A DNA stretch of 64,000 nt, taken from the sequence record PV654397.1. One strand, written 5' to 3'. A program made the position numbers and the translations under genes. This DNA is from Escherichia phage WPEC5. The notes beneath the pieces were generated by a model that was given only the letters and a program-made list of their open reading frames with translations, searched no databases and was not told the origin of the DNA. Positions 49,547-50,477 of the stretch are shown here, one piece after another. The first letter of the stretch is position 1; every line of letters begins with the position of its first letter.

Positions 49547-50133
49547 AGTAGATCCTTATACATTGCATGTATTCTTACAATGTCTCTGTAATAACTCATA
49601 TCTTCACGATTATCATTAAAAACAGTAACACTGAACACAGCAGTACTAATTGAACTATCAACAATGTACTCTTTTAATTTATTATAAAGATATATGCACT
49701 TAGTAGATGTATCATCCCACATAAGACTATTTTGAAAGATGTTTTCTTCTGTGTTAGGATATAAGTACTGCTCAATCTTGTACCCCAATGAACTATCACA
49801 GTTTTTATATACAGAAATAGATGGGACATTCATATTGCACATAATACTAATAACATTATCATTGTATGTAGAAATTAAACTGGTACTGGATGCTACACTT
49901 TCATCGTAATTCAGTACTGAAATTCTTGCATTATCTGTGCAGTACAGATGTTTCATTCCACCTCTCATAGCCATAGTAAGAAATTTATCAGTGAACCATA
50001 TTCCTTTTGTTTTCAGTATAGTTTCATGCATAAGATAAGTTTCAATGAAGATTTTTACACGCTCAAATGCCAAGTCAAGTTCATTGTACATAACGGATAT
50101 CCTTCTGTAAAGAATCAATATATTCTTTAACAA
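49537..50133 (-). CDS. FQ-motif family paralog
   Basis: TEENIFQNSLMW. Confidence 0.55.
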   Translation of the reverse strand: MLKNILILYRRISVMYNELDLAFERVKIFIETYLMHETILKTKGIWFTDKFLTMAMRGGMKHLYCTDNARISVLNYDESVASSTSLISTYNDNVISIMCNMNVPSISVYKNCDSSLGYKIEQYLYPNTEENIFQNSLMWDDTSTKCIYLYNKLKEYIVDSSISTAVFSVTVFNDNREDMSYYRDIVRIHAMYKDLLCY

Positions 50134-50308
50134 CTTGTTCCTGATACTGTGTACCCAAATACATCAGTACTTTTAACTCTTTGAATTCAGTACTATATGA
50201 GTTGATTTGCATCATTCTTTTAGAGTATATACCGAATAGTTTGTTAATGTCATCTTGGTCTATTATTTTCATAAATTCTCTTTTTGACCTTATTTTGTAA
50301 GTACTCAA
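50081..50308 (-). CDS. YLGT-motif small protein paralog
   Basis: KVLMYLGTQYQEQVVKEYIDSL; related to 50250, 63142 and 63378. Confidence 0.45.
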   Translation of the reverse strand: MSTYKIRSKREFMKIIDQDDINKLFGIYSKRMMQINSYSTEFKELKVLMYLGTQYQEQVVKEYIDSLQKDIRYVQ

Positions 50309-50477
50309 TATAACCCTTCATCGCAACATCCTGTTTGTTAGAGCCAACGAAGAACAAAAGCTTGTATTCATGATAATTCATATTGGGCTTAGTGTTGAAC
50401 CATATATCCCACACTGCACTCACAGTTCTTGTATATTCAATTCTATTAAATGTCTTTGAATACTTCATCGAAATCAA
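50250..50477 (-). CDS. YLGT-motif small protein paralog
   Basis: KLLFFVGSNKQDVAMKGYIEYL. Confidence 0.45.
   Translation of the reverse strand: MISMKYSKTFNRIEYTRTVSAVWDIWFNTKPNMNYHEYKLLFFVGSNKQDVAMKGYIEYLQNKVKKRIYENNRPR

Follow-up and report, generated by a model that had tools for sequence, protein, structure and literature searches.

We have analysed a 64,000-nucleotide stretch of the genome of Escherichia phage WPEC5 (record PV654397.1), hereafter called the window, which is part of an Asteriusvirus (121Q/PBECO4-like) jumbo coliphage. At two sites, this stretch carries a pair of small, overlapping genes, A1/A2 and B1/B2, embedded in a long array of larger paralogous genes that we refer to as the FQ array. 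We find that the four genes are outlying members of a family of small proteins, here named LGTNYQE after its conserved core, which comprises 26 to about 32 copies per genome; roughly 25–29 of these form one gap-free head-to-tail array, situated about 2 kb past the window's end. The explanation we favour as a whole, and regard as rather probable, is that A1, A2, B1 and B2 are real family members, that the family evolves by gene birth and death, and that its products would act on the host early in infection. We are highly confident in the statements on what these genes are and how they evolve, and put forward their function far more tentatively. The family as such is already catalogued, without a function, and earlier publications make mention of it; the four genes belong to what is an ordinary, if striking, case of a tandem gene family confined to one jumbo-phage lineage.

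Four outlying members of the LGTNYQE family

All four genes lie on the minus strand, as do all sizeable open reading frames (ORFs) of the window, whose G+C content is about 0.30–0.37. A1 (50250..50468) encodes 72 residues from an ATG at 50468 with AAGG upstream; it is a divergent family member with the core FFVGSNKQD and corresponds to gp379 of phage 121Q. A2 (50081..50272), the counterpart of 121Q gp380, starts at an ATG at 50272 and encodes a canonical member of 63 residues, MKIID…LMYLGTQYQEQVVKEYIDSLQKDI. B1 (63378..63590; gp345) yields 70 residues from a TTG at 63590, preceded by GGAGG, and B2 (63142..63405; gp346) yields 87 residues from an ATG at 63405, with AAGGAG 6 nt upstream and a long C-terminal helical extension. 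A Shine-Dalgarno-like sequence is thus found ahead of each gene. For B1, an alternative ATG at 63554 would give the 58-residue version annotated in phage Ecwhy_1; we favour the TTG, because the N-terminus MKSI then fits the family consensus MKx[LI]. The ORFs of the original prediction, at 50,081-50,477 and 63,142-63,590, are present where they had been placed. The length of 75 residues that it gave them has to be replaced by those above, as it stems from listing the longest ORFs from any ATG, GTG or TTG, here TTG-started ones.

The genes are tightly packed. A2 and the end of A1 share 23 nt, and the stop codon of A2 overlaps with the start of the next FQ gene; B2 has 28 nt in common with the end of B1 and 35 nt with the start of the following gene. 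Since each gene overlaps the end of the preceding and the start of the following one, both pairs lie within polycistronic units, and the four genes would be co-transcribed and translationally coupled. Around them, the nucleotide sequence is 94% identical to that of Escherichia phage WPEC3 and 82% identical to that of 121Q. Orthologues of A1 are intact in WPEC3, Ecwhy_1, 121Q and Salmonella phage SD-15, with 81–83% amino acid identity and dN/dS ratios of 0.155–0.164. The A2 frame is open in the same relatives (dN/dS 0.19–0.43), and the orthologue comparison for B2 gives 0.39–0.45. Judging from these ratios, A1, A2 and B2 are under purifying selection, and the four ORFs are by all indications real genes, annotated as such in relatives.

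The two pairs had been singled out for the motif [LF][MF][YF][LV]G[TS]xxQ[ED]. In a six-frame translation of the window, this pattern occurs exactly three times, in A2, A1 and B2; B1 carries a serine at the first motif position (SFYLGTIVQD) and fits a relaxed pattern only, so that the common core ascribed to all four proteins holds in its strict form for three of them. A set of 200 shuffles gave no instance of the exact motif and a mean of 0.025 instances of the relaxed one. In BLASTP comparisons, B1 and B2 share 37% identity over 59 residues, and pairings between the A and B proteins mostly 25–32% over 31–38 residues, with A1–B1 giving a weak match of 26% over 42. Profile searches among 1,082 stop-to-stop ORFs connect the sites in both directions: a hidden Markov model (HMM) of the B pair retrieves A2 (E=1.8e-6) and A1 (1.6e-3), and one of the A pair retrieves B2 (1.6e-5) and B1 (1.2e-4). 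All four also match phrog_4148, an independent profile built by others, with E-values of 8.5e-17 for A2 (over its full length), 4.5e-5 for A1, 9.3e-5 for B2 and 2.2e-4 for B1; against our own iterated family HMM, the E-values are 1e-17 to 3e-20. The kinship proposed in the original prediction is thereby confirmed, and the alignments reach well past the short motif to which, on an adverse outcome, they would have been confined. To judge by these comparisons, the four proteins are homologous, paralogues that arose by gene duplication.

The profiles of the two pairs also picked up a run of additional members in WPEC3, just past the point where the window ends, and an iterated profile found 34 members in the window and WPEC3 together. 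By genome, Ecwhy_1 has 31, WPEC3 has 30 in addition to the A pair, 121Q has 26 and SD-15 has 28. The consensus reads MKxLxxxEY…E…LGTNYQExxVxxxIxxLxxxIxxK for proteins of 60–93 residues, in which the G, T, Q and one L are nearly invariant (91%, 97%, 97% and, for L55, 94% of the family alignment; A1 has S in place of T). With lengths of 63–87 residues, the four proteins show the family core h-h-h-[LVI]-G-T-x-x-Q-[ED] followed by the helix V..[YW]I..L...I..K. In WPEC3, the main array (CDS648-676) has no intergenic space and a start-to-start spacing of 194–260 bp. Both pairs are found outside it, about 6.5 kb and about 20 kb downstream and within the FQ array. As the YLGT motif is the signature of this large family, the two pairs are its satellites. 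One slot of the main array, WPEC3 CDS667 (7368-7616 of our WPEC3 sequence L002), is occupied by a degenerate member with a 6-residue insertion after GT, in which the invariant Q is lost (MTGTDKNAIAKSIDMF); it falls below the profile threshold despite its position inside the array.

Existing catalogues hold the family in phrog_4148 and phrog_28039, both labelled 'unknown function', and 33 of the 34 aligned members match phrog_4148; in 121Q, its members are the hypothetical proteins gp319-gp341, gp345/346 and gp379/380. The proteins in these two groups have the same length, core and phage genus as the four described here and do not differ from them in kind. What sets the four apart from the array members of phrog_4148 is their location outside the main array and, for A1, B1 and B2, their divergence (E of 1e-4 to 1e-5, against 1e-17 for A2). 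Beyond this phage group, we found little trace of the family. A word-indexed search of 5.8 billion proteins returned 106 matches, the named ones all from E. coli or its jumbo phages, and a profile run exhaustively against 1.84 billion cluster representatives found only 74 clusters, the most distant of which again have named members from Escherichia phages, UB and JNE01. In a tblastn search with a consensus written by hand from the family alignment, 35 of 50,697 phage records matched, all of them Escherichia or Salmonella phages and none RaK2-, GAP32- or CBB-like. The DNA around the two pairs matches only about 32–35 phage records, all of them of Escherichia or Salmonella jumbo phages of 310–386 kb in or near Asteriusvirus. 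By this distribution, the family is restricted to the Asteriusvirus genus-level lineage. A Pfam scan of the four proteins, all 34 aligned members and their neighbours gave nothing above threshold, and a profile search of the sequences in the PDB gave nothing below E=0.36. The family domain also occurs as part of a larger protein, P0171 (269 residues; AXC36995.1 of phage UB, and contigs labelled E. coli), where it spans residues 1–63 and is fused to a C-terminal region of about 200 residues; this region has no convincing Pfam or PHROG match and is not FQ-like.

For structure prediction, we used AlphaFold2 with an alignment of the window proteins and their database homologues as input, and modelled A2 and B2. 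A2 is predicted with high confidence (pLDDT 91.4, pTM 0.73) as a three-helix bundle with helices at residues 6–21, 28–38 and 44–62 and residues 2 and 41 joined by a one-residue bridge. The model of B2 (pLDDT 84.6) contains the same three helices, at 11–23, 27–41 and 48–84, the last one lengthened. The predicted family fold is therefore a small three-helix bundle, in which helices 2 and 3 would be joined by the turn 'LGT'. Conservation falls mostly on residues of the hydrophobic core and of this turn. L-G may end helix 2 and T-x-x-Q may cap helix 3, so that the LGT signature may be largely structural.

The succession of a helix, a glycine-containing turn and a second helix is also what one would expect of small DNA-binding regulators of a helix-turn-helix (HTH)-like type, with LGT as the turn that joins helices 2 and 3, or else of nucleoid-associated proteins. 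The median pI of 8.7 and a net charge of +8 to +10 in some members would suit such a role, for which a precedent exists in the proposal made for the zinc-ribbon expansion of about 35 copies in Bacillus phage G (PMC7824862). A fold search in BFVD, however, matched Asteriusvirus paralogues only, and the charge spread, from -7 to +10 with pI values of 4.4 to 10.0, lends this reading no backing either. An HTH or sigma-region-4-like motif, which we had first suspected from the sequence pattern, thus found no support, and neither a superposition on a known HTH fold nor a Pfam HTH match places the family among HTH proteins. We consider DNA binding unlikely and prefer protein binding as the activity of these small bundles.

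Gene turnover at the two sites and in the main array

The two satellite sites differ in their stability. Conservation of the A pair extends to 32 phage records. At site B, B1 has been cleanly deleted in WPEC3, from just past the stop codon of the FQ gene to the ribosome-binding site of B2, and phages fEgEco12 and EC.P1 show the same shortened match, with B1 deleted. Where B1 is present it can be highly divergent: it is 96% identical in Ecwhy_1 and only 35% identical to 121Q gp345, which is still its reciprocal best hit, while the flanking genes are 72–83% identical in 121Q. The B1 slot is thus hypervariable between flanking genes of 72–99% identity (counterparts at ~29917-29946 of comparison sequence L001 and 18597-18806 of L004). 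The whole B pair is missing from four Salmonella phages, SD-15 among them. Phage UB has an insertion of about 0.9 kb at this site. Within the main array, slot identity between Ecwhy_1 and 121Q ranges from 27%, equivalent to absence, to 91%, and a few adjoining genes are recent duplicates with 52–64% identity. As far as these comparisons reach, the family evolves by gene birth and death, that is, by tandem duplication, deletion and fast divergence of single slots.

Such turnover could also leave behind decaying copies with no selected role, and the four genes might be relics of this kind. The dispensability of B1 in three phages and the absence of the B pair from four others would fit, as would the fairly high dN/dS ratio of B2. 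On the other hand, reading frames and ribosome-binding sites are intact in all genomes that carry the genes, dN/dS is clearly below 1 (0.16 for A1), the A pair is widely conserved, and the folds of A2 and B2 are predicted with confidence. We therefore hold it to be quite improbable that these are non-functional remnants.

The original prediction had explained the two pairs by the duplication or transposition of an entire two-gene module within the FQ array. In its favour, each site contains exactly two adjacent, overlapping family members among larger genes, all four are homologous, and the lineage closest to the B clade in a neighbour-joining (NJ) tree is A2, though with 2.8% bootstrap support. 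We find no support for such an event in the DNA. A blastn comparison of 48.5–52 kb with 61.5–64 kb gave a best match of 23 nt (E=0.31), and thus neither DNA similarity nor a common boundary; a repeat search yielded no repeat family that joins the two sites; and the immediate neighbours at sites A and B belong to different PHROGs. The tree was computed on 52 core columns for 61 members, drawn from the window, Ecwhy_1 and 121Q; in it, the orthologues of A1, of A2 and of B2 each form a group with 100% support. Over 500 bootstraps it groups B1 with B2 in 33%, against 1.2% for A1 with B1 and 0.6% for A2 with B2, and the pairing A1~B1/A2~B2 expected of a duplicated module was best in only 10.6% of column resamplings. 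The phylogenetic signal is weak because the proteins are short. Moreover, the pair structure is itself unstable, given the loss of B1 in three phages. As the main array lies just past the window's end, the appearance of 'two pairs' is partly an accident of where the window stops. A module duplication is an account to which we attach very little weight, a very old one whose traces have been erased being a remote possibility.

Separate histories of the two sites agree better with the data. The N-terminal halves of B1 and B2 are alike (KY[KR][ED]F…[IR][KR]LSEF), a likeness shared also by 121Q gp345, and tandem duplication at site B itself is the most likely origin of this pair. For A1 and A2, the most economical reading is that they represent older, separate lineages.

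Array position and a possible host-directed role

Along the coding strand, the terminal repeat comes first and the LGTNYQE array second; past a few other genes follow the FQ array, in which both pairs are embedded, and finally genes for RNA repair and DNA metabolism. Two records define the edge of the repeat. For phage vB_Ec-M-J (L007), the direct terminal repeats annotated by the depositors lie at 1-21,525, with the first array gene beginning at 21,624. The WPEC3 record has a left end that matches L002 at 100% identity from 9630 onward; its first array gene begins at 9532. In these two records, the main array begins about 100 nt inside unique DNA, at the inner edge of a terminal repeat of about 21.5–22.5 kb, with transcription leading from the repeat in the direction of the FQ array and the window. 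A location inside the repeat could be rejected, as there is one array per record and it starts about 100 nt outside.

The spacer between repeat and array (L002 9532-9630) contains a 10/12 sigma-70-like promoter (TTGACT-16-TATTAT). Within the repeat, three perfect 12/12 sigma-70 consensus promoters (TTGACA-16-TATAAT) are found on the minus strand at L002 11386-11413, 12914-12941 and 13408-13435, in intergenic gaps between small, spaced genes. Their sequences suggest strong transcription by the host RNA polymerase.

We tentatively propose that the LGTNYQE proteins are early, non-structural modulators that bind host or defence factors. This proposal draws on the location of the genes beside the repeat, their organization in operons, the small proteins they encode, the combination of a conserved scaffold with variable surfaces, the restriction to one lineage and the turnover in copy number. 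A conserved scaffold with highly variable surfaces would make them small protein binders of such factors, and their copy number and alleles would vary under host–phage conflict. Host-conflict genes on the same strand of the window, encoding T4-type RNA ligase 1 (Rnl1), polynucleotide kinase-phosphatase (PNKP), Sir2 and PhoH/PIN, count in favour of this explanation. A search of the literature found no expression or interaction data for the family.

Several points weigh against it. Promoter counts are overall no higher than in shuffled sequence, which makes the promoter evidence suggestive only, and early expression is deduced from position and consensus promoters alone. The near-invariant G-T-x-x-Q could be a shared binding site or else a purely structural helix-capping turn. 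Purifying selection on orthologues, with dN/dS below 0.5, is unlike the signature of an arms race; such a pattern would have to arise by gene turnover rather than by substitutions. Finally, the phylogeny is based on 52 columns, and B1 and B2 group in just a third of its bootstraps.

That the proteins are instead small structural or internal components of the virion, for example of the inner body or associated with DNA and packaged with the genome, is very improbable: many small basic proteins could coat DNA, and the inner body visible in 121Q and phAPEC6 (PMC5646251, PMC7247149) counts for it, but the 62 proteins identified by mass spectrometry in phAPEC6 virions (Wagemans et al. 2020) include none between gp347 and gp549 and none of 7–11 kDa, small proteins being easily missed by this method. 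As PhoH (gp341c) anchors the phAPEC6 numbering, which we infer across the region, neither the LGTNYQE nor the FQ family would be structural.

Expansions of this kind have been noted before. Genome growth by tandem duplication in this phage group was pointed out by Hua et al. (2017, mBio; PMC5646251), and the point was repeated for phAPEC6 by Wagemans et al. (2020). The former concerns the same phages and the same phenomenon in a single sentence, which leaves the genes meant unspecified and contains no description of structure, boundaries, satellites or turnover; here, two unrelated arrays are told apart, with at least 37 FQ and 26 to about 32 LGTNYQE copies. The roughly 35 zinc-ribbon genes of Bacillus phage G (Iyer et al. 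2021, PMC7824862) are likewise a huge expansion of a tiny domain in one jumbo-phage lineage, without a known function, but their zinc-ribbon fold and the predicted cysteine-poor three-helix bundle of the LGTNYQE proteins differ, and there is no homology.

Large eukaryotic DNA viruses offer a broader parallel. The MGF110/360/505 multigene families near the genome ends of African swine fever virus (ASFV) and the amplification of K3L in poxviruses act as 'genomic accordions', and their role in host range or immune evasion has been demonstrated experimentally. As in these viruses, tandem paralogues adjoin the genome termini in Asteriusvirus, and copy number and content vary between isolates; unlike in them, a host-range role is a hypothesis here, and the genes are not homologous. 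In large virulent phages, host-takeover modules such as the SPO1 gp37-60 module and the pre-early genes of T5 lie in or next to terminal repeats. They resemble the present case in that numerous small, uncharacterized genes are gathered at or close to a long direct terminal repeat, and that strong promoters of the sigma-70 type are found in the vicinity, but they consist of unrelated genes, whereas the Asteriusvirus array consists of about 30 paralogues.

By analogy, the LGTNYQE family, and perhaps the FQ family too, may be to these phages what the terminal multigene families are to large eukaryotic DNA viruses, an idea we regard as possible, if somewhat doubtful. It would amount to a bank of about 30 small three-helix binders built on one shared scaffold and expressed first from the terminal-repeat junction. 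Each binder would neutralize a different host factor or defence variant, and host range would be tuned as cassettes are gained, lost and replaced, in the way seen at the B1 slot.

Taken alone, the four genes are of modest interest, as stray hypothetical copies of a catalogued, uncharacterized family. Together with the array past the window's end, however, two unrelated paralogue families fill about 33 kb, about one tenth of a 350-kb genome, and the array of small proteins, whose content differs between isolates, starts right at the edge of the terminal repeat. If its products are indeed host-interaction factors, the array would provide a compact and easily deleted system for the study of gene-family expansion in giant phages, and the family could supply many small protein binders on one scaffold.

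The FQ array and neighbouring genes

The FQ array (36567..63885, minus strand) comprises at least 37 paralogues of 100–220 residues, as found with an iterated HMM, which share the motif E-E-x-[FY]-F-Q-x-S-[LT]-h-[YWF]-[DN] and are split over many PHROGs of unknown function. Its HMM matches none of A1, A2, B1 and B2, and a kinship between the FQ and LGTNYQE families was rejected (hhalign probability 0.2%). The motif resembles the site of 3C/NIa proteases, E-x-x-Y-x-Q followed by S/G (for example EEGYFQGS at 50979-51425), a likeness that may be coincidence.

According to the original prediction, each pair is flanked by FQ genes on both sides; this holds for one side of each. Downstream of the A pair, the gene at 49537..50133 (minus strand; likely ATG at 50091, 184 residues; phrog_32681) matches the FQ HMM with E=4.9e-11 and corresponds to WPEC3 CDS604 of 555 nt, and upstream of the B pair, that at 63574..63885 (minus strand; 103 residues; phrog_13866) does so with E=1.4e-16. 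The FQ HMM recognizes neither the gene upstream of the A pair (50446..50982, minus strand; phrog_18780), in which an FQ dipeptide is present, nor the one downstream of the B pair (62766..63176, minus strand; 136 residues; phrog_29252). The latter is followed by two very small minus-strand ORFs of 60 and 50 residues (62444-62626 and 62626-62778), which have no PHROG match and are annotated in WPEC3 and Ecwhy_1.

A1 and the adjoining FQ gene at 49537-50133 show different patterns of identity. A1 is 97% identical between Ecwhy_1 and 121Q, while the window copy is only 81–84% identical to either; the FQ gene is 99% identical to its counterpart in Ecwhy_1 and 56% to that in 121Q. These patterns speak for a mosaic structure of the array on a fine scale, and for recombination inside it.

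In a 75-nt gap of the FQ array (59221-59308, minus strand), an intrinsic-terminator-like hairpin, GCCTGTATCGTAAGATATGGGC, is followed by T7; it is the only good one between 48 and 64 kb. Directly after it comes an 11/12 promoter-like site, TTGACA-17-TACAAT with TG, and the two together may mark a boundary between transcription units. A different element, the 28-nt hairpin AAAGGGATTGACTCCGGTCAGTCCCTTT, occurs twice in identical form in the terminal repeat of WPEC3 (L002 11087-11114 and 13842-13869, minus strand), where it overlaps a TTGACT-17-TATTAT promoter-like site. This stem-loop-plus-promoter cassette, which the window lacks, recalls the mobile stem-loops with early promoters known from T4-type phages.

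Beyond the FQ array, the minus strand of the window carries genes for PNKP (21638-22570) and Rnl1 (23393-24535), close together, for a DNA ligase (13948-15366), Sir2 (6125-6877) and PhoH/PIN (3447-4886), and for two metallophosphatases. PNKP and T4-type RNA ligase 1 form the classic tRNA-repair pair that counters anticodon nucleases of the host.

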